Source: an uncultured Bacilli bacterium
Lineage (GTDB): Bacteria; Bacillota_I; Bacilli_A; RF39; UBA660
Length of the DNA stretch: 64,000 nucleotides
Assembly (NCBI GenBank): GCA_950097225.1
Contig: CATNCE010000002.1
Coordinates: forward strand, 5,495-69,494
Direction of reading: 5' to 3'
Part shown: in pieces, positions 5,884-38,204 of the stretch
Position numbering within the stretch: position 1 is the stretch's first letter
How the letters are laid out: each line of letters starts with the position of its first letter
Translations under genes and position numbers: made by a program
The notes under the pieces: generated by a model
What the model saw: only the letters and a program-made list of their open reading frames with translations
Told to the model about the DNA's origin: nothing
The model's database searches: none

Positions 5884-6540
5884 CTAGACTTTCTCTACTA
5901 ATTCGCATATATAGATAATTTGCTTATTCGTATTGTGTCTGCAAGTGATTAAAGTTAGTGTACTTTTTTCGGCATTTCTAACAATATTAGCAGTACCAGT
6001 TTTCTCAATGTCGTATTGATTAAGAACTTTGTATTTGTACTCGTTACCATTATAGAAAATACTTACTTCATCATCTCTTTCGAGTTTATGAAGATTTTTA
6101 AAATAAGCAGTTCTTCCACTTCCAGAGTGTCCTGCTAGGATCACATTTCCTTTGTCTTTATCTGGCATATCAGATTCTTTGACAACAAGTATATTTCTAT
6201 TAACATTGTTATAATAACTACCTTTATTTGCTAGACCTTTTTCTAACCCTATTTTAGGTATTTTGATTACTGCAAAATAATCTATTTTCGTTTTAGTAGG
6301 TTGTGGCTTTTCAGTTTCCACTTTTTCTTCTGGCACTTCTGGAGTAGTATCTTCTGCAATTTCTTTTTGTTCTTCAAAGAAAGTATCAATTAACTGTTCT
6401 TCGTTTTTTGTTTCAAGATAATTATATAAATACTTACCACCAATGATTAAAGTACCTAAAATGATAAGTAAAGAGCCAACTATGATTAGTTGACTCTTAC
6501 TACCTTTATTATTCTCGATTTTGTTTTTTCTTTTTAACAT
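5884..6540 (-). CDS. Sortase-family transpeptidase, membrane anchored
   Basis: N-terminal TM segment, His motif VILAGHSG and catalytic Cys motif TLTLITCRHN. The start overlaps the 3' end of the adhesin gene by 32 nt. Confidence 0.8.
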   Translation of the reverse strand: MLKRKNKIENNKGSKSQLIIVGSLLIILGTLIIGGKYLYNYLETKNEEQLIDTFFEEQKEIAEDTTPEVPEEKVETEKPQPTKTKIDYFAVIKIPKIGLEKGLANKGSYYNNVNRNILVVKESDMPDKDKGNVILAGHSGSGRTAYFKNLHKLERDDEVSIFYNGNEYKYKVLNQYDIEKTGTANIVRNAEKSTLTLITCRHNTNKQIIYICELVEKV

Positions 6541-9238
6541 AGATAATCGCTCCTATTCCTCCTAGAATAAACATTGTTCCAACAATTTCAATGAAGTGTG
6601 AATCAGTAATACCTGTACTTGGTACTTCAACGATTACTTTTTCATCAGTCATTGTTGCTTTTACAATTTCGCCATCTTCTTTGATTTCAAAATACATTCT
6701 TTCTGGATTTAAAGTATAGCCCTCTGGTGCTTCTTTCTCCAAAATATAGTATTTTCCATAACGAATTTCTGAAATAGTAATTTTTCCATTGTCATCAGTT
6801 CTTCCACTAAAAATTAACTCATCTTTATCATTGTAGATTTCGATTAAAGTGTTAGGTAGTGGCTCTCCTGTTGATACATCAGTTTTAGTAAATTCAAGAG
6901 TTCCTGTTACTGGTTTATTTTTCATTTCAGCCTTAACGATTTCTCCGTTTTCTTTTAATTCAAAATAAACTTTTTCATCAGTTATTACATAGCCTGTGCT
7001 TGGCTCTTTTTCTACGATATAGTATTTTCCAACTTTTAAATCTGTAATAACGATTTTTCCATCTTGATCTGTTTTACCAGTAAAGATTAGTTCATCATTT
7101 TCAGTATAAATTTCAATGATAGTATCTGGAATAACATCTCCATTTACTAAATCAGTTTTAGTAAATTCAAGAGTAGCCTTTTTAAGATAATTTAAAGCAC
7201 TATATGATTCATAAACTATTGGAGTTTCATCATCAACTTGTTTTAATGTGAAATAGTGTTTATCTCCATCAAGAATATAGTCATCTTGTGTTTTTACTTC
7301 AATTAAATAGTATTTTCCTAGTGGAAGTTTCTTTGTTTTAGCATAGCCGTTTTCATCTGTAACGATAGTATCTACTTTGTCGCCTTTATTATAGTATAAA
7401 TGGTTTCCATCAGCAGACTTAATATCTTCTTCTGCATAGATTTCAAAAGTAACTCCACTTAATTTTTTCTTAGCATAAACATATTCGCCATCTTTAATCA
7501 CTAAATCTTCGCCAACTTTATAAATCTCTAATTGACCTTTAATAGGTGTATTCTTATAAGTTACTGTGATAAATGCTCCATAAGTTGTATAGTCATAATG
7601 CGTATCATTTCCAATAGTGAATTTTAGACCGTTTTTATCTTTTAAGTAACCATTTGGTGCAGACACTTCAATTAGTTTGTAATTTCCTGCAACTAATTTT
7701 AAAGGTGTTACTAATATACCATTTTCATCAGTTTTAAATTCACTAATTACTTTACCACCTACGAATTGAGATACATATTGTTTAGTATCTTCATTAAAGA
7801 TTTTGAAAGTAGTATCTTTAATGGCAATAGTCTTTCCAGTTTCTTCATCTACTTTTATTACTTTCAAATAAGCAGTCAAAGAGTTGTTTAAAATATTGTA
7901 ATATTGCTCTTTTTCGCTTGTTTCACTTACTGTGATATAGAAGTCATAAATCTTTTCATATCCAGTTGTCGTATTTACTTGATGGAACTTCCAAACTCCA
8001 TAAGGCAAATTGATAGAAGCATAACCGTTTTTATCTGTTGTGATTTCATCAAACTTGTTTCCGTTTGGGTAATAAATTTCAAAAGTAATACCTGCTTCTG
8101 CATTTAGGAATTTTGTTTCTCCCTCCACGTGTTCGTATTGTTTTAAAATACTTACATAGTTTTTAATTACTTTTTCTACAACATCTACTCTTGCAGAGTC
8201 TTTTCCTTTTACATCAATATTGTAGCGAGTTTTATCTAATTCATAACCCTCACTTGGTTTGATTTCTTGTAAATAGTAATCATTCCAAGATAATACTGCG
8301 TCACTTTTAAAGTAACCGTTTTCATCAGTAACAACTGTTGTCACTAATCTTCCCGTAGCAGTTTCGTATATACCATACTCTGCTCCTTTTAAAGTTGCTT
8401 GACCCTGTGCAGTTTCAGTTTCAACATCTTTCTTATAACCCTCTACTGGTGTTGTATAACTATTTACTCTAACTCTAGCCATAACTGGATCAGTAGTTCC
8501 AGGTACAAACATATTTTGAATTTCGTTTCCAACGAATAACTTATAGCCACTAGCATAAGGCATATTTTTTGTTAAAGTTAAATCTATTTTTCCATTTCTA
8601 GTAGGCTTAATTGTTAGTGTATTTCCATTAACACTATATTCTGCACCACTAACACTTACACTATAATTTCCAAGTACATTATTAGTATCTGTTAGTGTAA
8701 TAGTTTCTCCTACTTGTGCTTTATAAACTCCACCATCAAAACTTGGTCTATCATAGTGGTGTTCGATTAGTCTATTGATTTCTGCTTTTTCTGTTGATAC
8801 ATCAAATGGTGTTCCTGCTCCCCATCTTTCTGTTGAGAAAGTTGTATTGGCTCCGTGTCCAATGATAATATCCCATATCATACCTTGAGTAGCAGCACGA
8901 TATTGTAGTGTTTGGTGTCCCGGATAAGTATAACCGTAGTAACCGATTAACAATAATCTTTCTTTGATTTCATTTGGAAGTCCTGTTGCTTCCCAACTTC
9001 CAGGATTATAAATAGTTCCCTCTGGTATATTTGGCTCTATGCAATAAGATACTTCGCCATCCATTTCATATTGCATAAAATACCAAGAATGATGGTCAGT
9101 TCCATCTGCTCTTGCTCGATCATAATAATAGCCGGATTTTGTTTTTGTTAAAGTTGCTGCATTTACTGCTTGAGCATTAACAGTAAATCCAAGTAAAATA
9201 CCTAGTGTTAAAACTAGGCACATTCCAATTTTTTTCAT
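6509..9238 (-). CDS. Cell-wall-anchored surface adhesin: N-terminal thioester domain, then multiple Cna-B/SpaA-type (isopeptide-type) repeats and a VPSTG sorting signal
   Basis: Signal peptide MKKIGMCLVLTLGILLGFTVNAQA. Thioester signature YCIEPN (Cys codon 9041-9043) plus ATQGMIWDI (Gln codon 8885-8887). Repeated GKYYLIE..PxGY modules. C-terminus is VPSTG, a hydrophobic stretch, then KKKKQNRE. Confidence 0.85.
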   Translation of the reverse strand: MKKIGMCLVLTLGILLGFTVNAQAVNAATLTKTKSGYYYDRARADGTDHHSWYFMQYEMDGEVSYCIEPNIPEGTIYNPGSWEATGLPNEIKERLLLIGYYGYTYPGHQTLQYRAATQGMIWDIIIGHGANTTFSTERWGAGTPFDVSTEKAEINRLIEHHYDRPSFDGGVYKAQVGETITLTDTNNVLGNYSVSVSGAEYSVNGNTLTIKPTRNGKIDLTLTKNMPYASGYKLFVGNEIQNMFVPGTTDPVMARVRVNSYTTPVEGYKKDVETETAQGQATLKGAEYGIYETATGRLVTTVVTDENGYFKSDAVLSWNDYYLQEIKPSEGYELDKTRYNIDVKGKDSARVDVVEKVIKNYVSILKQYEHVEGETKFLNAEAGITFEIYYPNGNKFDEITTDKNGYASINLPYGVWKFHQVNTTTGYEKIYDFYITVSETSEKEQYYNILNNSLTAYLKVIKVDEETGKTIAIKDTTFKIFNEDTKQYVSQFVGGKVISEFKTDENGILVTPLKLVAGNYKLIEVSAPNGYLKDKNGLKFTIGNDTHYDYTTYGAFITVTYKNTPIKGQLEIYKVGEDLVIKDGEYVYAKKKLSGVTFEIYAEEDIKSADGNHLYYNKGDKVDTIVTDENGYAKTKKLPLGKYYLIEVKTQDDYILDGDKHYFTLKQVDDETPIVYESYSALNYLKKATLEFTKTDLVNGDVIPDTIIEIYTENDELIFTGKTDQDGKIVITDLKVGKYYIVEKEPSTGYVITDEKVYFELKENGEIVKAEMKNKPVTGTLEFTKTDVSTGEPLPNTLIEIYNDKDELIFSGRTDDNGKITISEIRYGKYYILEKEAPEGYTLNPERMYFEIKEDGEIVKATMTDEKVIVEVPSTGITDSHFIEIVGTMFILGGIGAIIYVKKKKQNRE
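6638..7174 (-). repeat. Tandem in-frame duplication (91 + 88 codons) encoding two Cna-B-like domains at the C-terminal end of the adhesin
   Basis: TLEFTKTDLVNGDVIPDTIIEIYTENDELIFTGKTDQDGKIVITDLKVGKYYIVEKEPSTGY... is followed by TLEFTKTDVSTGEPLPNTLIEIYNDKDELIFSGRTDDNGKITISEIRYGKYYILEKEAPEGY... Confidence 0.8.
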
Positions 9239-12180: not shown

Positions 12181-12247
12181 AATTGGATAATTTCCTTTAT
12201 TTATAAGGGTTTAAGGGTGTTCTTAATTAAATCGTAATCAACCAGTT
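12181..12247. repeat. 67-bp direct repeat, copy 1 (64/67 identical to 15093-15159)
   Basis: aattggataatttcctttatttataagggtttaagggtgttcttaattaaatcgtaatcaaccagtt compared base by base with copy 2; 3 mismatches. Confidence 0.9.
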
Positions 12248-12326
12248 GATTGTTGTATTTTGTCGATTATTGTTGTCCATTGTTTTCACTTCCTTTTTAA
12301 AGTCTTGAACAAATATAATTATAACA

Positions 12327-15092: not shown

Positions 15093-15159
15093 AATTGGAT
15101 AATTTTCTTTATTTATAAGAGTTTAATGGTGTTCTTAATTAAATCGTAATCAACCAGTT
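15093..15159. repeat. 67-bp direct repeat, copy 2
   Basis: aattggataattttctttatttataagagtttaatggtgttcttaattaaatcgtaatcaaccagtt. It ends 32 nt upstream of the KilA-N start codon. Confidence 0.9.
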
Positions 15160-15261
15160 TATATTTGTCTGGTTTTGCCGTTTTTTATTTGTACAATATT
15201 AGCACTTCTAATCTTTTAGAGTATCAAAATTGATACTTTTAATTGTCATTATTTTTTTCTA

Positions 15262-25903: not shown

Positions 25904-27403
25904 TTACCCAATAATAAATGGATTTTTTGCTGTACCATCGCCATCGATAATTCGGTTAGTTGGTTTTAGTGTTATAGAAGGACGAACACCGCGAGTATTG
26001 CTTACAGTACTATTACTTAATCCGGTAGAAACGTCCCCTACACCAGCATTAATACTATCCATGTATACAGGGGATAAAGACCATTCCCAGTTTCCTGTAT
26101 ATAGATAATTGGTTTCAGGTACCGAGCTCTCTTCTGGAGTTTTAGTGCTGCCATCGATTTTATAGTTACTTGTATATCCGGCTAACGCATATTCATCCAT
26201 TGTCAATAAACCTATTGGATAAGTCAAGTCCCCATTTCCATTTTCCTTACTTGTGGTAAATTTATCGTTTTCATTTGGGCATATTAGATTGGGTTGTACG
26301 TTTGTTGTGTAATACGATGATCTACCCACAACGCCATAGGCTGTAGGGTTGGTTTGATATCCTAATGTTCCATATAATGGACCAAAGGCATTATTCTCTC
26401 CTCCAGATATCGTACTTCGATCATTACACCAAACGGCATCTTCTAAATATTCTTCATAAGATGTGTCTTTTAGGTTGTTTTTATACCAAGTATCTATATA
26501 TGTTTTAATAGTTGAATTATTTATATTAGCATGAGTATCATTATAATTATTGCTTCCTGTTTTACCATACATATATCCAATATAGGCGTTATCACTATTG
26601 CTATCATTCCATTTTGATATGCCAATTTCAGGCTTATTATTTACACAACCCCATCCATCATAATTAAATTCGCCATTATAGATTAATTTAGTTCCACCTG
26701 TTTCAGTTGTTCTAATTATTTTCCAACAAAATCCTGCAAACATAACATTATTGTCGATTACATTTCCTCGATAAAAGTATACATCTTTGTTTTCCTCGCC
26801 AATAGTTTTATATACCCCTGTTTCTGTATCATCGGCTGGGGTATTAAAATCAATTAAAGATATATCTCCTTTGTATTTACTTTTTAGAACATCAGCAATT
26901 TGAATAGGTCTAAATTTATCATTAGGTATACCATCACTTATACTATCTCTTTCTGTTGCTGTATTAATTATTTCACATGTTATATTAAATTCCGTGTCTT
27001 CTACATATGCTGTTACAAGCTCGATAGTCAATACTCCTGTTCTGGTCTTGGTTGCTAAAAGTGTTGACCTTTCATCAAAGTCATTTACTATTTTTAAATG
27101 TTCATTGCCATTGGTGCAATTTATACTTACATTTGCATCATACTCACGACTTCCATTGGTCACATCATATTCTAGTGTATATTTTTCTCCAACTAAACTC
27201 ATAGAATGCGAAAATACGATATGTCTATCATCTTTTATTAATCTATTATTTTTTGTCCCATTTTCATAAGAAGCTGAAAAATACACGTCAAAGTCATTAT
27301 AGTTTACTCCTATACTGGTTGTAACATTAATTATTAAATTAGTTGCTACACTAGCAAATGCGATTGTGAAGAGTATTATACTTAAGACAAGTGTTTTTCT
27401 CAT
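25904..27403 (-). CDS. Secreted/surface protein, paralog A (499 aa); the C-terminal ~330 aa is shared with 36856-38064
   Basis: Signal peptide MRKTLVLSIILFTIAFASVA. Shared blocks KGDISLIDFNTPADDTETGVYKT, VYFYRGNV.DNN, FCWK..RTTE.GGTKL.YNG, DNAY.GYMYGK, LEDA.WCNDRS, LTYPIGLLTMDE and RGVRP.I.L (the last is reminiscent of DUF6273-type domains). GGAGGTG lies upstream of the ATG. Confidence 0.6.
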   Translation of the reverse strand: MRKTLVLSIILFTIAFASVATNLIINVTTSIGVNYNDFDVYFSASYENGTKNNRLIKDDRHIVFSHSMSLVGEKYTLEYDVTNGSREYDANVSINCTNGNEHLKIVNDFDERSTLLATKTRTGVLTIELVTAYVEDTEFNITCEIINTATERDSISDGIPNDKFRPIQIADVLKSKYKGDISLIDFNTPADDTETGVYKTIGEENKDVYFYRGNVIDNNVMFAGFCWKIIRTTETGGTKLIYNGEFNYDGWGCVNNKPEIGISKWNDSNSDNAYIGYMYGKTGSNNYNDTHANINNSTIKTYIDTWYKNNLKDTSYEEYLEDAVWCNDRSTISGGENNAFGPLYGTLGYQTNPTAYGVVGRSSYYTTNVQPNLICPNENDKFTTSKENGNGDLTYPIGLLTMDEYALAGYTSNYKIDGSTKTPEESSVPETNYLYTGNWEWSLSPVYMDSINAGVGDVSTGLSNSTVSNTRGVRPSITLKPTNRIIDGDGTAKNPFIIG

Positions 27404-27420
27404 ATTTGTACACCTCCAAG

Positions 27421-27533
27421 GCGGACTACCCTATTAAAAATATACCATTTTTTTTTTTTTTTTTAGCAAGTCAAAACTAGTCTGTCAAGGTAATTTCTTT
27501 TATTTTTTTGTAAAATTTTACATATAAAAAAAA
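27421..27533 (-). promoter_or_regulatory. Duplicated 5' regulatory module, copy A (homologous to 38087-38197)
   Basis: Coding strand: palindrome TGTAAAATTTTACA (27509-27522), TTGACA (27483-27488), a 17-nt spacer, T(A)17, TGGTATAT, then conserved leader AATAGGGTAGTC. Confidence 0.6.
27448..27464 (-). repeat. Homopolymeric tract, 17 T on the plus strand (A17 on the coding strand), in the promoter of paralog A
   Basis: Counted directly as 27448-27464. It starts 1 nt after a 17-nt spacer downstream of TTGACA. Confidence 0.9.
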
Positions 27534-27537
27534 GACC

Positions 27538-29458: not shown

Positions 29459-32400
29459 TTAAAATAAGGACATTTGATTTGATTCACTCAAATTGTCTAA
29501 AACGCCAAGAGACTTTAATTTTTCAATAGCTGATGATGGACATTTACCACGTTTTTGCAAGTCCTCTTGAGAAATAAATGGTGCTTGTTGACGGGCTTTT
29601 ACTATTCCATCAGCAACGTTTTCACCTAGACCATCCAAGGCTCTAAAAGGAATAATTAATCCTTTGTTATCTTCAGTTATGACAAATTTGATAGCATCAC
29701 TTTTCTCGATATCAATATTTTTAAAGTATAATCCACGAGCTGTCATCTCTAAACATAAGAGCAATGTCTCTCTTGTATCAATTTCTTTATTGCTTGCTTG
29801 ATTTCCCTTAGCATCTATTTCATCTATTTTATCACGAATAGCATCTTCTCCTCGAACCATAGAGGCAACATCGAATTGGTCACGGCGAATAGACAGGTAT
29901 GCACAATAGTACCAAATAGGATGATGAACTTTAAACCATGCTATACGGAAAGCCGAGGTTACATAAGCAGTAGCATGAGCTTTTGGGAACATGTACTGAA
30001 TCTTGCGACATGATTCGATATACCAACTTGGAACATTGTATTTTTCCATCTCTTCGGCGAAAAGCTTCCATCCTTCTGGGTCTTTAGAAGGTTTCCCTTT
30101 ACGAACAAATTCCATTATTTTAAATGCTCTTCCAGCAGGAAGGCCCATCTGCATTAGGTTAACCATGATATCATCACGACAACCAATGACATTTTTAAAT
30201 GGTACTTCGATAACCCCGTTAGCATTAGGTGTACATAAATCTCTAGCATTACCTAGCCATACATCGGTTCCATGAGATAACCCAGATATTTTAATAAGCT
30301 CGGCGAAAGTTGTTGGTTTAGTTTCTTCAAGCATTCCAAGTAGGAACGATGTCCCAAATTCTGGCACTCCTAGAGTTCCCGTCGGGCAATATTTGCGCCC
30401 TTCACTGTCGGTCAAACCACGAAGACGATAACGATCAACACCAAGAATTTCTGGTCCAGTAAAGATCTTCATGGTATCTAAATCTCCCAAGTCAATTTGC
30501 GTAACATCGATACCTGATAGGTCTTGAAGCATTCTTAAAACGGTTGGATCATCGTGTCCTAGTATGTCGAGTTTTAAAAGGTCAGCATCGATAACGTGGT
30601 AATCAAAGTGAGTAGTTCGCCAAGGAACAGTTGGGTCATCCGCAGGATATTGAAAAGGCGTAAAATCCCAGATATCTTTATAATTAGGAACAACTACGAT
30701 ACCACCTGGGTGTTGTCCAGTTGTACGTTTTACTCCTGTACAGCCAACTGCTAAACGCTCAACCTCAGGAATACGAATACTACTTTTAACTAGTCCTTTT
30801 TTCTTCAACTCATCTTTGCAAGTTACGTCTAAACCTAAAGATGAACACTCAGTCTTCAAATGATTAAACATTCTCTCTTCGAAATAACCTTGAACATATC
30901 CATAAGCTGTTTTATCAGCTACTGTACCAATTGTTCCAGCACGATACACATTGTCGGTACCGAATAACACTTTTGTGTATTCATGAGCACTAGCTTGGTT
31001 ATCCCCTGAGAAATTTAAATCAATATCAGGAACTTTTTCTCCAGCAAAACCTAAGAATGTGGCAAATGGCATGTCGTTTCCTTGATGAATCATAATCGTA
31101 TTACATTTAGGACAGGCTTTTTCGGGTAAATCAAAGCCAGATGGATAATTTTCTGAATAAGGTAACCCACTTTCGTCGTTAAATTCACTATGCTGACATT
31201 TTGGACAGTAGTAGTGAGCTGGCAAGCCATTACATTCGGTGATTCCCATCATGGAAGCTACGAAAGAAGAACCAACAGATCCACGTGATCCAACTAAATA
31301 CCCCTCATCATTAGAGTGCTTAACTAATTTTTGAGCAATCAGATAAATAACGTCGAAGCCTCCACCTATGATACCTGTAAGTTCTGCTTTAGCCTTAGTA
31401 ATGGCATCTTCTTCTTTTAAGGATTCGTCATTGCGCATTAATTGTTCTTTTTTTAAATTAACAACGCCTTCATAACCCGACATAATGATCTCATGTAAGA
31501 ATGATGGGAAAATTTTCTCTTTTTCTTCTTCGCTCATTTCAGGATTTTCAATAGTTATTTTTTCCATAACTAATGAGTTAATTTTATCGCCATAGAATTC
31601 CTGAGCAATACGCTCTTCGATATTAGGTGGAAGTGGATTTCCATACATACTCCATGCGCGCTCAAAAACTAAATCGCGACAAGTTTCTTGAGAATGCTCA
31701 ATGATTGGTGAAAATGGTTTATCGGGAAATATTACAACCTCGATCTCATCAAGCATGTCGATGATCTTATTAGGATTTTCAATAACTATTTCGTGAACTA
31801 AGCGTTCATCTTTAAGCCAAGCAAATTCACTAAGCATTTCATCGGTAGTGCGAAAAAACTGATTAGGAATATGCCCTTCAGCAATTGCATCACTTTTAGT
31901 AAATTTAGATATTAGTGAATATGTACCGTCGGTATAATTAACGGATATTAAATTAGCTATTTGTAATTTGCGTAATGATGCATCAATAGTGTATTTTTTT
32001 TCATTTTCGTCTTTTTTCATCACTTCTTCATTAGCTGATGTCTTATCTATAACATAGATTGAGGCAATATTAGTTGAAGTAATGGGAATGTCTTTGTTAT
32101 TAGATAAAGCATAAACATACTTTAATACTTTTATATCAACATCAGATAGTTCCATGCCATTTTTCTTAGCTTTGGAAATGGCTGATGCTATGTTTTCTTT
32201 ATTTACATTAGTCTTACTTGCACTTGATAGATAACGAGCAAGAGGATGACGTCCTTTGCCAGGAACATTTTGGTTAACAATGATTTCACGATATAAGCGA
32301 TCGGATTCATTGATATTGTGAACATCTCCTGTAGCAATAATTAATTTATCCGCTTTTTTAGCACAACGAATAATTTTTTGAAGACAGTTTTTTAAGTGAT

Positions 32401-35215
32401 CTAAATTATTTATAGAGTGATCACTTATTAAATGAGAATAATTTTCTAGCGGTTGAATCTCGATGTAGTCATAAAATTGCATAGCTTCACATAGTTCTTC
32501 ATCATTACGTGTTTCTGCTAAATAGAATATCTCGCCATTTAAACACGATGAACCAACTAAAATATCCTCACGATATTCCTCGATTAATTTACGAGGTATT
32601 TTAGCGTTCCTCTGAATAAAGTTTGTATTGGCAAAGCTAATAAGTTTGAATAAATTTTTTAATCCTTTGTTCGTTTTAGCAATAAATGTTACATGTTTAA
32701 CAAAGTCATATATGTTGGCCGAGTTTTCGGTAAATGTTTTACCTGGAATATTTTCATACATCTGTAAAAAGTCCTCTTTACACCATGGGAATTTCCAAAC
32801 ATAATTATAATTTTCGTATTTAGCGAAAGGATAAGATGTTCCCTCCTCTGCGACTTCATCCGCTCCTAGTTTGCGAACATAGTTTTTGTAGGTACAATTT
32901 TCGCCCACGTTAGCTAACATCTTAGGGTTGTTGCGATATGCCATCTCCTCAAGGGTTCCTAAATCATTTAGTTGTTTTAAATCTACTATTCCTTCGATTT
33001 GTTTTAACATTTTATTGAAGATGTATCCTGTATTTTCTGAGTCAACGTCAGCTCCATGGTGTTGTCCAACATAAATTGATACGGCTATTGTTTTTACACC
33101 AAACGGAGTATTGTATTTAATTTCACAGCTATTTTCAGCAGCATGTAAGGTAAATTCGAGATTATAGTCAACAAGGTCAAACCCTTCTGCTAATTTAACG
33201 TCAATAGTTGTTTTTTCGGTTTTACTAGCTTTATAGACAGTATTGATGTAATACTCTTTTTTTACTTTATTTACACGTTGTTCAGTAGAAATATCAGCTT
33301 CACTAATTTCTACATCGATAGATCTTATGATTTCTTCCCCATCGACAAGAATGCTTAACACTTCTTTTGCTGTTTCATTATCAAATTTGAACGAACTAGA
33401 AGATATAGTTTGGCCTTCATCATCGTCATCTTCTTCGCCAGTATCGACTCCATAAAACTTACCTAAAGCCTTTAAACTATGCTTTTTTAAATCGCGATTA
33501 ATAATACGTGATAACATTAAGGTATCGACAATTGGATTTTCAAGTTTACCTAAGTTGTACTTGTAATAGGCCATATCGAGCATATTCTTATCGAATCTAG
33601 CATTATGAGCAACTAATGGCATGTTACCTATCCACTCTTTAAAACGCTTCGTAACATTTTCTTCATTATCAGCATCTTTAACGTCATCATCACTGATATT
33701 TGTAACACGCGTAATTTGTTCATCGATATGGTGCCCTGGATTTATTAGTTCATCAAAGCGATCTATCACTTCCCCATCCTTGATTTTTACTGCACCGATT
33801 TCAATCATTGAGTCTCCTAAACCAGGATTAAAGCCGGTTGTTTCGGTATCGAATACGATAAACGTTGTTCCATCTATTTTAGTATCATTAGCATTATAGC
33901 AGACATTTAAGAATGATTCGCACATCTCAAGCTCGACACCGTATGCCGCCTTAAATGGCTTATAGTTTTTCTTTTCATCCTTTAAATCGGCAATATATTT
34001 TTCTAGTTCCGCTATTCCTTCAGCGTCACCTGATTTTTTTACTTCTAAAAGGGCTTCTTCATTTTCAGCAATTTTTGCGTCCAATTCCTTTTTCTTAGAT
34101 TTATTATATTTTGTGACAGTATCAAAGACATGTGAGAATGCTTGACAACAATCATGGTCAGTTATAGCGACCCCCGCATGCCCCCATTCTATAGCTTGAT
34201 TAACCAGTTTTACTTCATCGCATACTCCATCCATTTGACTCATCATGGTATGGGCATGTAATTCAACACGTTTTTCTGGATGCGTATCTTTTCGCTTAAT
34301 TTCTGGATTATCAATGCTCTCATGATTTCTTAGTTGAAATACTAAATCTTTAGCATAATCATCAAAACGAACTTGACCAGTGAAATGAAACCACGATCCT
34401 TTTTTTAAAGTTTTACTAAGACTTATAAATTCCTCTTCATCAGAAGCAAAAGTCTTAGCTAAAATTGAGGAGGTATTATCACTTATCTTTAAAGTCACTA
34501 AAAATAGTGGTGTTCCATCTTTTTTAGTCAATTGATTAAATTCCGCATCAAAGACATATGCTTCAAGATTAACACTGTTTTCTTCTTGAGTAATAGATGA
34601 TATTGGAACAATTCCTTCTCTTTGAAAATCGACTTTTTTGCGTTGTTGCCATTTGGGCTTATCACTTTCGATTGTCATACGGCGAGGAATAACCACTTCC
34701 TCTTTTTCTTTTTCAATGCGCTTTTTGATCTCTTCAACCTCACGAGTATTGATGATAAAAGATACTTCATAACCATGAATTCCTAATTCTTCTAATGTCT
34801 TGGTTATTTTCTTGCATTCCTTTTTTAGAGTTGTCTCCTCGATTTTTGAAGTCACTTCTATGATTATTACCTCATCATCGATTTTTATTTTGTCGACATC
34901 TAGACCAGATAAGCTAGGATTGTTCTCTAAAACTTTATCCAAAAAATATAAAAAATACTCAAGTACAGCATCGCTTTTAATATCTGAATAAGTTAACTCA
35001 ATATTGATCTTCTTAACGTTTTCCACCCCATCAGCACATAGTCTTTTTAAATTAAGTAGTGAAGTTATGTTTATGAGTACATCGGCATTAATTCTTAAAG
35101 TCCAAGTATTTTCCTTTGTATTTACTACCATATCCTTTAAAGTGGCATTTTCAAACGCGATAGCGTCATTATAATTTACTAATTTAAAAAATCTTAAAAG
35201 TTTATCATCCATCAT
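29459..35215 (-). CDS. polC: DNA polymerase III PolC-type, unusually long (~1918 aa)
   Basis: PHP ELHAHTMMSQMDG. Exo I FIVFDTETTGF, Exo II LVAHNARFDKNML, Exo III QHHGADVDSE. Zinc module CPKCQH...CPKC. Also GVKRTTGQHPGGIVVVP and LKLDILGHDDPT. Start chosen at ATG 35215. Confidence 0.95.
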   Translation of the reverse strand: MMDDKLLRFFKLVNYNDAIAFENATLKDMVVNTKENTWTLRINADVLINITSLLNLKRLCADGVENVKKINIELTYSDIKSDAVLEYFLYFLDKVLENNPSLSGLDVDKIKIDDEVIIIEVTSKIEETTLKKECKKITKTLEELGIHGYEVSFIINTREVEEIKKRIEKEKEEVVIPRRMTIESDKPKWQQRKKVDFQREGIVPISSITQEENSVNLEAYVFDAEFNQLTKKDGTPLFLVTLKISDNTSSILAKTFASDEEEFISLSKTLKKGSWFHFTGQVRFDDYAKDLVFQLRNHESIDNPEIKRKDTHPEKRVELHAHTMMSQMDGVCDEVKLVNQAIEWGHAGVAITDHDCCQAFSHVFDTVTKYNKSKKKELDAKIAENEEALLEVKKSGDAEGIAELEKYIADLKDEKKNYKPFKAAYGVELEMCESFLNVCYNANDTKIDGTTFIVFDTETTGFNPGLGDSMIEIGAVKIKDGEVIDRFDELINPGHHIDEQITRVTNISDDDVKDADNEENVTKRFKEWIGNMPLVAHNARFDKNMLDMAYYKYNLGKLENPIVDTLMLSRIINRDLKKHSLKALGKFYGVDTGEEDDDDEGQTISSSSFKFDNETAKEVLSILVDGEEIIRSIDVEISEADISTEQRVNKVKKEYYINTVYKASKTEKTTIDVKLAEGFDLVDYNLEFTLHAAENSCEIKYNTPFGVKTIAVSIYVGQHHGADVDSENTGYIFNKMLKQIEGIVDLKQLNDLGTLEEMAYRNNPKMLANVGENCTYKNYVRKLGADEVAEEGTSYPFAKYENYNYVWKFPWCKEDFLQMYENIPGKTFTENSANIYDFVKHVTFIAKTNKGLKNLFKLISFANTNFIQRNAKIPRKLIEEYREDILVGSSCLNGEIFYLAETRNDEELCEAMQFYDYIEIQPLENYSHLISDHSINNLDHLKNCLQKIIRCAKKADKLIIATGDVHNINESDRLYREIIVNQNVPGKGRHPLARYLSSASKTNVNKENIASAISKAKKNGMELSDVDIKVLKYVYALSNNKDIPITSTNIASIYVIDKTSANEEVMKKDENEKKYTIDASLRKLQIANLISVNYTDGTYSLISKFTKSDAIAEGHIPNQFFRTTDEMLSEFAWLKDERLVHEIVIENPNKIIDMLDEIEVVIFPDKPFSPIIEHSQETCRDLVFERAWSMYGNPLPPNIEERIAQEFYGDKINSLVMEKITIENPEMSEEEKEKIFPSFLHEIIMSGYEGVVNLKKEQLMRNDESLKEEDAITKAKAELTGIIGGGFDVIYLIAQKLVKHSNDEGYLVGSRGSVGSSFVASMMGITECNGLPAHYYCPKCQHSEFNDESGLPYSENYPSGFDLPEKACPKCNTIMIHQGNDMPFATFLGFAGEKVPDIDLNFSGDNQASAHEYTKVLFGTDNVYRAGTIGTVADKTAYGYVQGYFEERMFNHLKTECSSLGLDVTCKDELKKKGLVKSSIRIPEVERLAVGCTGVKRTTGQHPGGIVVVPNYKDIWDFTPFQYPADDPTVPWRTTHFDYHVIDADLLKLDILGHDDPTVLRMLQDLSGIDVTQIDLGDLDTMKIFTGPEILGVDRYRLRGLTDSEGRKYCPTGTLGVPEFGTSFLLGMLEETKPTTFAELIKISGLSHGTDVWLGNARDLCTPNANGVIEVPFKNVIGCRDDIMVNLMQMGLPAGRAFKIMEFVRKGKPSKDPEGWKLFAEEMEKYNVPSWYIESCRKIQYMFPKAHATAYVTSAFRIAWFKVHHPIWYYCAYLSIRRDQFDVASMVRGEDAIRDKIDEIDAKGNQASNKEIDTRETLLLCLEMTARGLYFKNIDIEKSDAIKFVITEDNKGLIIPFRALDGLGENVADGIVKARQQAPFISQEDLQKRGKCPSSAIEKLKSLGVLDNLSESNQMSLF

Positions 35216-35285
35216 GAGCACATCCTATTCTTGTATATAAGTTAATTATACTAAATGAAAGCTTTTTTGAAAATACAAACAAAAG

Positions 35286-35577: not shown

Positions 35578-36801
35578 TTATTCTTTATTTTGAGGAAATT
35601 TTAAAATATTACTTGAACTTTTTAAATTTGGTTTTTGACGAAACGGATGCAAAGAATAATCAATAGCGAAATTTTCAAATATTGCATCCAAGATACGTAG
35701 CTTCAATTCGAATTGATTATTTAAATATGGCCAATTTTTAAATGTTTTAATTACTTCATCTATACTTATCTTGCCTGTTCTATTAACGCTGGCATAAATA
35801 AATACGTTTAGCATAAATGACATTACGACATTGGCATTATAAAATTCGCCATTTATCTCGGTTAATTCACGTTTAAATTTTGTTAGCATAAACGACATCA
35901 CGTCGCGAATGGCAAACAAGTCCCATTCAATGTCATAAATACAGCCATATTCATTATTTTCAGCTTTGGACATAATTTTTAATAAAAATGAATACCAAGA
36001 AATATCATCTAGATTAAATTCACTTAAATGATGTTCTATAGAGGCAGCATCATTTTTCATTTCTTTGATAGCAACCTCAATTGTTTTTTTTTCATCGAAA
36101 TCACGTCCTAAAACTCGATGTGGTTTTTTACTATCTAGTTTATCTTCTCCACTTTTAAATTCTTTAATAATTCTTTTTTTTAAATCATTATTTAAAAATA
36201 TACACCCTGTTATAATCTGTTTTGCTTCTTTTGCACTGAATTTTTCCATACCATTTGCGCCTTTAAATGCTGCGATTTGCTCTAAAATTTTGTCAATGAC
36301 ATCTTCTCTTCTTAGATTAGGGTGTTGCATTTGAATTTCTTCATAATAGTTTTCATTAATCAAAAATAGAAATTGGTTAATATTTATGAGTGTATCACTA
36401 TCGACGTTAGAAAGTACTTCCTTACTTTTTATTTCTTTATAAAAATAGAAAGATCCTTTTTTAATCTTATGATCAATTTCCATTCCCTCTGAAAACATTT
36501 TTACAATATTATTAGCTAGCTGCATATCACAAGCCAAATTATAATCAGATTTTTTCTTGATGTAGTTTACCCCCGCAATAGTAAGTGTCCCAAGAATTGG
36601 AGAGGACACTAAATAGCCAAGCCATAATGGTACTCCAAAAATACTTAAGCTAACTGCCCCTATTGTAGCAGAGGCAAATATGGTTGCTATCTTATTTAAA
36701 TATTCTTCAAATCTAGAATCATCTTCATAAAAGTCAAAATCTTCTAAATCAAATATTTCATCATGCTTTTTATCCTGTTTCTTAAGTTTTGTTTTCTTCA
36801 T
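35578..36801 (-). CDS. Hypothetical membrane protein (407 aa)
   Basis: Acidic N-terminus, then two hydrophobic segments (IFASATIGAVSLSIFGVPLWLGYLVSSPILGTLTIAGV). No family recognised. Confidence 0.45.
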   Translation of the reverse strand: MKKTKLKKQDKKHDEIFDLEDFDFYEDDSRFEEYLNKIATIFASATIGAVSLSIFGVPLWLGYLVSSPILGTLTIAGVNYIKKKSDYNLACDMQLANNIVKMFSEGMEIDHKIKKGSFYFYKEIKSKEVLSNVDSDTLININQFLFLINENYYEEIQMQHPNLRREDVIDKILEQIAAFKGANGMEKFSAKEAKQIITGCIFLNNDLKKRIIKEFKSGEDKLDSKKPHRVLGRDFDEKKTIEVAIKEMKNDAASIEHHLSEFNLDDISWYSFLLKIMSKAENNEYGCIYDIEWDLFAIRDVMSFMLTKFKRELTEINGEFYNANVVMSFMLNVFIYASVNRTGKISIDEVIKTFKNWPYLNNQFELKLRILDAIFENFAIDYSLHPFRQKPNLKSSSNILKFPQNKE

Positions 36802-36855: not shown

Positions 36856-38064
36856 TCATCTAACTATGTAAGGATTGGCACCACTACCATCCCCTTCGAT
36901 AATCTCGGCAGTTGAATTAAGAGAAATAGCAGGGCGGACCCCTCTTGAAAAGTCTGTTGTATTAACATATAACTTGTTGGTAGCAGCAACCCATCCCACT
37001 TGAGCATAGCCTCCTGAAAACACCTCTGGAGACATACTCCAATATCCAGATTTAGAAGACAAGTAGTTTTCTTCTCCTACAGCTGAATTTTTGGTTCCTC
37101 CATCAGGATTGTATTCACTTGTATACCCTCCAAATACTATTTCATCCATGGTTAAAAGCCCGATTGGATATGTTAATGCTCCGTTGCCAACTTCTCCACT
37201 TACTGTAAATTTATCATTATTATTTGGACATATTAAACTAGGATTTACATTTTTTGTCCGAAAAGATGATCTTGATACTATTCCATATAACGTAACGTTT
37301 TTCCCAAAGCCAAACTTGTCGGAAGTTGGTTGCCCCCAAGCACTATTAATATTTTCCTTAACAAAACTTCTGTCATTACACCATATAGCATCTTCTAAAA
37401 GGTTCTCCCATTCTTTGCCTTTTATATTTGCGTAATACCATCTGTCTATGACTCCCTTTATTGTTGAGTTATTTGTATTAGTTGTTGTTGCTTCATAAGT
37501 TGCACTTCCTGCTTTTCCATACATGTATCCTACATAGGCATTATCAGTATCTATAGTATTGTATGCAGATTTCCCTATTAATGCAGCATCTCCAGTTTTG
37601 TTACATTCTCCATTTTCTGGAGTACCATTGTATAATAATTTTGTACCTCCTGACTCTGTTGTTCTGACCATTTTCCAACAAAAATTGCCAAATATTATAT
37701 TATTATCTGTGACATTACCACGATAAAAATAAACTTCTGCATCATTCTCTCCTGTCGTTTTATATACTCCCGTTTCCGTATCATCGGCAGGAGTATTAAA
37801 GTTAATCAAAGATATATCTCCTTTGCTTTTAGATTTTATTAATTGAGCAATATTTCCTAAAATTGGCTCAGTCGGCTTAGTACTATTACCATTAACAATT
37901 TCATATAGATCATTTAATGCATCATCTACTGTGTCTATATCCCATGCATTATCGTTTGGACTATATAAAATATCTTTAGCATTACATAAAGTGACTGCTC
38001 CTGCTCCTACTACACTCCCGAAAAACAAACCTATTACTAGTATTATAATATTTCTACTTTTCAT
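36856..38064 (-). CDS. Secreted/surface protein, paralog B (402 aa)
   Basis: Start moved to ATG 38064 (AAAGGAG, 8-nt spacer). N-terminal anchor/signal MKSRNIIILVIGLFFGSVVGAGA. Shares the blocks listed for paralog A, ending in RGVRPAISL...GDGSGANPYIV. Confidence 0.6.
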   Translation of the reverse strand: MKSRNIIILVIGLFFGSVVGAGAVTLCNAKDILYSPNDNAWDIDTVDDALNDLYEIVNGNSTKPTEPILGNIAQLIKSKSKGDISLINFNTPADDTETGVYKTTGENDAEVYFYRGNVTDNNIIFGNFCWKMVRTTESGGTKLLYNGTPENGECNKTGDAALIGKSAYNTIDTDNAYVGYMYGKAGSATYEATTTNTNNSTIKGVIDRWYYANIKGKEWENLLEDAIWCNDRSFVKENINSAWGQPTSDKFGFGKNVTLYGIVSRSSFRTKNVNPSLICPNNNDKFTVSGEVGNGALTYPIGLLTMDEIVFGGYTSEYNPDGGTKNSAVGEENYLSSKSGYWSMSPEVFSGGYAQVGWVAATNKLYVNTTDFSRGVRPAISLNSTAEIIEGDGSGANPYIVR

Positions 38065-38086
38065 AATTACAACTCCTTTCAAGGGG

Positions 38087-38197
38087 GCAGACTACCCTAT
38101 TAGTAATATACCATTTTTTTTTTTTTTTTTAGCAATATATAATCGTTCTGTCAAGGTAATTTCTTTTATTTTTTTGTAAAATTTTACATACAAAAAA
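38087..38197 (-). promoter_or_regulatory. Duplicated 5' regulatory module, copy B
   Basis: Coding strand: palindrome TGTAAAATTTTACA (38175-38188), TTGACA (38149-38154), a 17-nt spacer, T(A)17, TGGTATATT, then AATAGGGTAGTC. Confidence 0.6.
38114..38130 (-). repeat. Homopolymeric tract, 17 T on the plus strand (A17 on the coding strand), in the promoter of paralog B
   Basis: Counted directly as 38114-38130. Confidence 0.9.
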
Positions 38198-38204
38198 GAA
38201 GAAA

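Follow-up and report, generated by a model that had tools for sequence, protein, structure and literature searches.

A candidate poly-A promoter switch for a large family of predicted exported proteins in uncultured gut Bacilli

Most work on phase variation by simple-sequence repeats (SSR) concerns cultured pathogens, among them Neisseria, Haemophilus, Helicobacter, and Mycoplasma. The vlp genes of Mycoplasma hyorhinis appear to be the closest match to the locus described here: indels in a promoter-spacer poly-A tract switch transcription of divergent surface-protein genes (Citti & Wise 1995, as summarised in PMC2268961 and PMC10502178). Promoter-spacer tract switches are also found at maa2 in M. 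arthritidis and vmm in M. mycoides (PMC2268961), and a poly-A tract lies 5' of the -10 of nspA in Neisseria meningitidis (PMC6389960). We found no report in the literature of SSR phase variation for the group of uncultured gut Bacilli considered here. The ON length of the vlp tract is 17 A. At porA and opc of N. meningitidis, poly-G or poly-C promoter spacers set promoter strength in steps, and T-tract length in the sabA promoter of Helicobacter pylori reportedly acts as an expression rheostat, as described by Aberg et al. in 2014. Reiterative transcription at pyrBI, codBA, and pyrG involves runs of 3 to 4 nt, NTP sensing, and nucleotide-pathway genes.

To place the new locus among these systems, we compared them with two promoter cassettes found in a 64-kb stretch of DNA from an uncultured Bacilli bacterium (hereafter, the window). 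By analogy, the cassette would work like the vlp promoter while standing outside the vlp family. In both cases a long poly-A tract lies immediately 5' of the -10 (here, of the probable -10), a conserved promoter (89% identity here) is common to divergent paralogs predicted to encode exported or surface proteins, and tract indels are the variable feature. The parallel with vlp drawn in the initial annotation holds. The vlp products, however, are lipobox-bearing lipoproteins whose C-terminal regions are repetitive, whereas the proteins here are unrelated to them in sequence and have no lipobox Cys. The vlp genes are clustered, whereas these are dispersed, following ruvB and rpoC and occurring at further loci. 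Further differences are the standard genetic code of this organism, an extra consensus TTGACA located 13 nt 5' of the -35-like hexamer, and a nominal spacer of 19 bp at A17.

Other systems match in part. In formal terms, the poly-G relatives of the family closely match the porA type, but they belong to another phylum and to other gene families, the nspA tract has just 5 to 6 A, and here both A tracts and G tracts occur within a single gene family, in different lineages. As at sabA, a homopolymer by the core promoter may tune expression through its length, possibly via alignment of an upstream element; such an effect could explain the role of the upstream TTGACA and the adjacent A-rich block. 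The sabA tract lies 5' of the -35, whereas the cassette tract would separate the -35-like hexamer from the -10. Resemblance to pyrBI, codBA, and pyrG consists of a homopolymeric run where a promoter-like -10 (TAAAAA) would put the start. In contrast to those genes, the cassette-linked genes are predicted to encode exported proteins, and nothing indicates a start inside the tract.

Two promoter cassettes in the window

The cassettes, each ~125 nt, separate ruvB from paralog A and rpoC from paralog B. Both lie on the minus strand, which is the coding strand for both flanking genes and both downstream genes. They are 89% identical over 112 nt without gaps and have the same order of elements: TGTAAAATTTTACA, TTGACA, N17, T, A17, and TGGTATATT. 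The initial annotation had listed the TTGACA, the N17 spacer, T-A17, the palindrome, and a downstream -10-like element, and each was found on the minus strand at the positions given below. The duplication that it described is real as well: the rpoC-to-paralog-B spacer is a near copy that also carries exactly A17. Features are listed 5' to 3' on the coding strand.

38083..38204, minus strand: cassette B, the rpoC-to-paralog-B spacer, a near copy of cassette A
38149..38154, minus strand: upstream TTGACA of cassette B
38139, minus strand: polymorphic site in the N17 spacer of cassette B; T in the window, G in GCA_948979055.1
38114..38130, minus strand: A17 homopolymer of cassette B; A16 in GCA_948979055.1, A18 in the Logan assembly of another strain
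38105..38113, minus strand: TGG TATATT, extended -10 of cassette B
36856..38064, minus strand: paralog B, 402 aa from the ATG at 38064, with a C-terminal family domain in common with paralog A
27404..27537, minus strand: cassette A, the entire 134-nt ruvB-to-paralog-A spacer, matching cassette B at 89% identity over 112 nt
5' end of cassette A, minus strand: weak hairpin and T-run at the ruvB stop
27509..27522, minus strand: palindrome TGTAAAATTTTACA of cassette A; its TGTAAA half alone is common to other species' cassettes
between TGTAAAATTTTACA and TTGACA of cassette A, minus strand: A-rich stretch of 20 nt
27483..27488, minus strand: upstream consensus TTGACA of cassette A, exactly 17 nt 5' of T-A17; absent from the interrupted homolog L156
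27466..27482, minus strand: 17-nt spacer of cassette A, ending in TTGC
27480, minus strand: polymorphic site in the N17 spacer of cassette A; C in the window, A in GCA_948979055.1
27464..27469, minus strand: TTGCTA, -35-like hexamer of cassette A, 19 bp 5' of TATATT at A17; kept in 19/19 copies
27465, minus strand: T before the tract of cassette A
27448..27464, minus strand: A17 homopolymer of cassette A; A17 in GCA_948979055.1 too
27439..27447, minus strand: TGG TATATT, extended -10 of cassette A, most likely the working -10 given its position relative to the ATG
27438, minus strand: polymorphic site right after the -10 of cassette A; T in the window, A in GCA_948979055.1
between TGG TATATT and the Shine-Dalgarno of cassette A, minus strand: TTTAATAGGGTAGTCCGCC
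27413..27417, minus strand: Shine-Dalgarno GGAGG of cassette A
27403, minus strand: ATG start of paralog A
25904..27403, minus strand: paralog A, 499 aa; hydrophobic helix at the N-terminus, beta-sandwich, and conserved domain at the C-terminus

Divergence between the two cassettes is found mostly in the 13 nt 3' of TTGACA, where 8 positions differ without any indel. The TGC of TTGCTA can also be read as the extended -10 of TAAAAA.

The two A17 tracts are the only homopolymers of 10 nt or more in the window. Runs of A or T numbered 141 at length 6, 58 at length 7, 10 at length 8, 2 at length 9, and 2 at length 17; only 0.003 runs of at least 17 nt would be expected, compared to the 2 observed. 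Both lie directly 5' of paralogs A and B, the window's only two members of their protein family. The palindrome had been singled out alongside the tract. It is present, and its two occurrences in the window stem solely from the duplication of the cassette, but it does not stand out as an element. Perfect 14-bp palindromes occur at chance frequency (8 in the window versus 9.3 ± 3.1 in shuffles), and neither its sequence nor its position is kept in other species' cassettes, where only the TGTAAA half is retained, at a distance from TTGACA that varies from 14 to 34 nt. On these grounds, we rejected TGTAAAATTTTACA as a conserved operator.

The window contains other features of interest. A 76-nt intergenic direct repeat with 92% identity (12181-12256 and 15093-15168; palindrome ATCAACTGGTTGAT, minus strand) may be another regulatory or terminator module. 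An ORF of 909 aa (6509-9238, minus strand) carries internal 273-nt tandem-like repeats (6768-6901 and 7041-7174; 73% identical), and its product may be a repetitive surface protein. PolC (29459-35221, minus strand) is 1,920 aa long. The usual PolC length is roughly 1,430 to 1,450 aa, which is ~450 to 500 aa shorter. The extra length falls between the exonuclease/PHP region (to residue ~917) and the polymerase core (from residue ~1259), and no intein or other Pfam domain was detected in this segment at E ≤ 0.001.

Tract length and tract type in other genomes

When paralog A, paralog B, and the 407-aa protein downstream of paralog B were searched for as exact sequences, the sole match was the assembly GCA_948979055.1, which is 99.97% identical to the window. 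Over 12.2 kb, there were four differences between the two, all inside cassettes A and B. Two of these were found in 7,002 compared nt and belong to cassette A (27480 and 27438), while the other two were found in 5,225 compared nt and belong to cassette B (38139, and A16 in place of the window's A17). If differences were evenly spread, the chance of all four falling in ~260 of 12,200 nt would be roughly 2e-7 by our own arithmetic. Both cassette-A substitutions shift toward the cassette-B state, which suggests short-patch gene conversion among cassette copies.

Other pairs of close relatives also differed at the tract. A strain with 99.5% identity (L145) had A18 at cassette B. A third cassette locus, recognised by an identical 388-aa protein (P0024) in three assemblies, had A17, A19, and A24, the last of which sits at a scrambled contig end and is doubtful enough that we do not trust it. 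The rpoC cassette of a mouse-gut lineage had A17 in one assembly (L041) and A18 in another (L094); in the 1,476 nt compared, there was one substitution besides the tract, also within the cassette, and the rest was identical. No indels were found outside the tracts in ~30 kb of strain alignments. These comparisons bear out the expectation that the tract is prone to slippage, with lengths of 16, 17, and 18 at module B, 17 and 19 (and the doubtful 24) at the third locus, and 17 and 18 in the mouse-gut lineage. As a separate observation, the Shine-Dalgarno of paralog B reads AAAGGGA in place of AAAGGAG in L145, owing to two adjacent substitutions at positions 62-63 (window 38074-38073).

Across 19 copies, the tract was A16 in 1, A17 in 13, A18 in 3, A19 in 1, and A24 in 1 (the doubtful case), where the consensus length of 16- to 19-nt homopolymers in low-coverage short-read assemblies is possibly off by one. 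The clustered substitutions cannot stem from sequencing error. No copy among the 19 had A15, the length that would give canonical spacing. The predominance of A17 (13/19 copies, three lineages) looks like stabilising selection, not free switching.

We identified the additional copies in two ways. First, a blind scan for A/T runs of at least 10 nt in 79 related loci (467 kb) found three, one of which (L041, a mouse-gut MAG) has TTGACA-N17(..TTGC)-T-A17-TGC-TATAAT directly 3' of rpoC and precedes a 1,428-aa family member. Second, a metagenome pattern scan that permitted tracts of 10 to 24 nt and -35 spacers of 16 to 18 nt yielded ten further true cassette copies. A single genome, ERZ777011 (~7x coverage), contains at least 8 of these ten, each 3' of a terminator-like hairpin and 5' of a gene for a signal-peptide protein; tract length agrees in 7 of 8 copies in this 7x assembly. 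In every A-type copy, TTGACA is 17 nt from the T and T-A(n) comes after TTGC, a conservation that is partly by design in the metagenome matches, since the scan pattern required these features. One ERZ777011 copy (L140, 1763-2131) has an insertion of ~130 nt in the leader, between AAGTCCGCTTAAAAAC and the Shine-Dalgarno, that contains a TTGAGA-N17-TATAAT-like site.

The cassettes systematically fragment assemblies of this organism. All Logan contigs with the exact RuvB (L002-L010, k=31) stop 43 nt past the ruvB stop, inside the cassette repeat, and those with QueA break inside paralog A, so that none of the RuvB and QueA contigs extends to the poly-A tract. Logan contigs of the downstream genes begin at TTGCT-A(n).

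In a survey of G runs covering the related loci and the window (531 kb, both strands), we found 19 runs of at least 7 G, all on the coding strand and all 5' of a family-gene match in their own locus. At least 17 of the 19 lie in a clear promoter, from a TTGAMA -35 to a TATAAT-like -10. The sister-species tracts range from G7 to G12 and hold the equivalent promoter position. These promoters and their interrupted or tract-less homologs were as follows.

Poly-G type a: TTGAMA-ATC-G8/9-TATTA-TAAAAT, spacer 16 bp in 11 copies and 17 bp in 1
Poly-G type b: TTGAAA-N7-9-G10-12-TATAAT, spacer 19 bp in 4 copies (7+12, 7+12, 8+11, 9+10) and 18 bp in 1
Examples of poly-G tracts: L022 2941-2948 and L060 2896-2907 (among L013-L079)
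Interrupted homolog L024: GAGGTGGGG, spacer 17 bp
Interrupted homologs L050 and L051: spacer 18 bp
Interrupted A-type relative L156: TTGTTC-A8CA5TGG-TATTCT, spacer 17 bp, without the upstream TTGACA
Close homolog without a tract: TTGTAA-18-TGA-TAAAAT

The TTGTTC of L156 is the counterpart of TTGCTA. Interrupted copies have spacers of 17 to 18 bp, whereas repeat-bearing copies mostly have spacers of 16 or 19 bp. A tracts and G tracts have opposite helical and structural properties, and a tendency to slip is what they have in common. That tracts of either kind recur at the same promoter position is, in our view, the strongest argument for mutability itself as the selected property. Together with the tract-length polymorphism and the confinement of differences to the cassettes at 99.97% identity, the poly-G tracts support the suggestion of phase variation made in the initial annotation.

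The closest homolog of paralog A (59% identity; L143/L144, 300-400 and 900-1000) is tract-less. Between its upstream TTGACA and its extended -10 are two copies of the direct repeat ACATATTTGTT and a CAACA-N4-TGTTG palindrome, which look like an operator.

The working promoter and alternative explanations

In a canonical sigma-70 scan (spacer of 16 to 18 nt, T at the last -10 position), neither TTGACA-17-TAAAAA nor TTGCTA-19-TATATT passes at A17. A TGnTATAWT element lies ~24 to 37 nt 5' of the ATG, a distance comparable to that seen for the -10 in the family's poly-G and tract-less promoters. Because of this distance and the homology with those relatives, the working -10 is most likely TGGTATATT, with the tract forming part of the spacer after TTGCTA. 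The spacer between TTGCTA and TATATT would then be 18 bp at A16, 19 bp at A17, and 20 bp at A18, with 19 bp being non-canonical.

We consider it probable that the poly-A cassette is a simple-sequence contingency switch that acts on exported-protein genes through promoter spacing. The core promoter would consist of the -35-like TTGCTA, a spacer made of the A tract and TGG, and the extended -10 TGG-TATATT, with transcription starting ~7 nt 3' of the -10 and leaving a leader of ~28 nt. Slipped-strand mispairing at replication would add or remove A residues, which would alter both the spacing and the helical phase of the -35 and -10. Promoter strength would change as a result, in a heritable and reversible manner, and each cassette-linked gene would switch independently of the others. 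Comparative evidence supports phase variation as the probable mechanism; we infer that tract length would alter expression and that switching within a population would be frequent.

Some features fall outside what the spacer switch explains, namely the invariant TTGACA exactly 17 nt before T-A17 and the modal spacer of 19 bp instead of 17 bp. With an extended -10 present, the spacing to the -35 may carry little weight. The upstream TTGACA might belong to an additional promoter that overlaps the first and is placed exactly 21 bp 5' of it, or it might act as an upstream element. Transcription of ruvB or rpoC may also run on into the paralogs; a terminator scan found none, and the hairpins 5' of the cassettes are weak. 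We rejected three other candidates. A structured leader or riboswitch was set aside given insignificant folds of the leader (z-scores of -0.8 to +0.5) and the absence of a leader match in Rfam, which returned one tRNA and nothing else for the whole window. A MerR-type promoter with a 19-bp spacer does not fit a homopolymer spacer with no dyad operator, and an ECF-sigma reading of the spacer GAAC lacks a CGT-type -10 at the right distance.

It is possible, though unlikely, that the tract plays a structural or spacing role at one fixed length, with A17 as its sole functional length and no switch. A rigid A-tract would phase TTGACA and the A-rich region with the extended -10 (38 bp, equal to 17 plus two helical turns), or would serve as a UP-like element, and variants of ±1 would be deleterious polymorphisms or assembly errors. 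The constancy of the cassette is consistent with this: the tract is exactly A17 in 13/19 copies from three lineages and in 7/8 copies of one genome, TTGACA-N17-T spacing held although the metagenome pattern permitted 16 to 18, and the 7+12, 8+11, and 9+10 arrangements of poly-G type b all sum to 19 bp, which suggests a selected spacing. However, G tracts, whose structure is opposite to that of A-tracts, hold the homologous position in sister species, and L156 works with a mixed 17-bp spacer in the absence of the upstream TTGACA. In addition, the sole indels between near-identical genomes are at the tract, substitutions cluster in the cassettes too, and the conservation of TTGACA in the metagenome matches was partly built into the search pattern.

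A more elaborate arrangement is a distinctly improbable one. The cassette would be a portable, gene-converting contingency promoter in which a consensus upstream TTGACA-17-TGC-TAAAAA overlaps the downstream extended -10 and tract length chooses between the two or traps RNA polymerase non-productively in the tract; the conserved 19-bp spacers of A-type and G-type b promoters could represent lineage-specific geometry. The upstream and downstream candidate promoters are exactly two helical turns apart. If true, the overlapping-promoter and lineage-specific-geometry readings would go beyond known SSR switches.

The initial annotation had also taken TAAAAA for the -10, which would place initiation within the A tract, and had raised reiterative transcription as a possible outcome. 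In such a model, a TTGACA-N17-(TGC)TAAAAA promoter would start within the tract, reiterative transcription would control escape, and TGGTATATT would be a sigma-dependent pause or a second promoter. Every A-type cassette does combine a perfect -35 with a spacer of exactly 17 nt, keeps a TG at -15/-14, and has A-rich, UP-like sequence upstream, and the spacer diverges in sequence between cassettes A and B (8/13 positions) without indels. But TAAAAA has no T at -7 and fails the canonical scan, and L156 has lost the upstream TTGACA, yet it retains TTGTTC, a tract remnant, and TGGTAT. The tract of the poly-G relatives lies plainly between the -35 and the -10, and homology points to the downstream TGnTATAWT. 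TAAAAA is therefore probably not the -10, and because reiterative transcription depends on it, that proposal is unsupported. Moreover, an exact tract length has no explanation under this model, the leader has neither significant RNA structure nor an Rfam match, and the regulated genes appear to encode exported proteins of no assigned family, not nucleotide-pathway functions. We judge it very unlikely.

Least probable of all is an ordinary duplicated promoter whose likeness reflects recent duplication and whose variation reflects mis-assembly of a repeat: the repeat does break de Bruijn assemblies (all of the Logan RuvB contigs end 43 nt past the ruvB stop, several SPAdes contigs end inside the cassette, and L154 is visibly scrambled at a contig end), but hybrid variants such as GACAGAATAGTTTT need real spanning reads, the cassettes are 89% identical compared to ~66 to 75% for the common part of coding sequences with unrelated N-termini, the cassette is kept across species and lies 3' of rpoC in a mouse-gut MAG, and faulty assembly cannot account for a poly-G counterpart that recurs in many independent MAGs.

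The downstream protein family

The genes downstream of the candidate switch belong to a family that numbers more than 5,000 homologs, with many paralogs in each genome. The homologs were recovered from gut MAGs whose records bear the title "uncultured Bacilli/Tenericutes bacterium" or "Firmicutes bacterium CAG:582." Coding identity is ~66 to 75% over the portion common to the cassette-linked genes, and the N-termini are unrelated. Sequence searches of Pfam, NCBIfam, and PDB found no relative of the family. An AlphaFold model (pLDDT 73.5) has a hydrophobic helix at residues 2-25, an Ig-like beta-sandwich at 40-151, and a novel C-terminal domain, which in the family is globular and conserved; Foldseek recovered a generic Ig-like sandwich and nothing further. 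The N-termini of paralogs A and B contain no lipobox Cys. From the predicted structure, we infer that the cassette-linked products are exported or surface proteins.

Directly 3' of paralog B, after a gap of 54 nt, is the gene for the 407-aa protein (35578-36801, minus strand), which is probably in one transcription unit with paralog B. This protein has a charged N-terminus and predicted membrane segments, with no match in Pfam or NCBIfam. Cassette-driven genes of the mouse-gut genome (L112, L127, L139, and L140) encode the N-terminal motif ...GVIYDNSTSGS..NVNDALNDLY, and paralog B has a similar N-terminal motif, YSPNDNAWDIDTVDDALNDLY (window 37900-38064). The cassette is therefore found in front of more than one protein architecture.

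The logic of homopolymer switches appears to govern a very large, uncharacterised exported-protein family of gut Bacilli that are uncultured and have small genomes, and whose hosts include humans, mice, and other animals. If confirmed, the family proteins would form the variable interface between these commensals and host immunity or phages, and tract length would be a signature of ON/OFF states in vivo that can be read from metagenomes. Confirmation would also serve as a warning that assemblies break and vary precisely at the cassettes. The main value of the finding is that it would open a large and unfamiliar protein family to direct reading of ON and OFF states from metagenomes.
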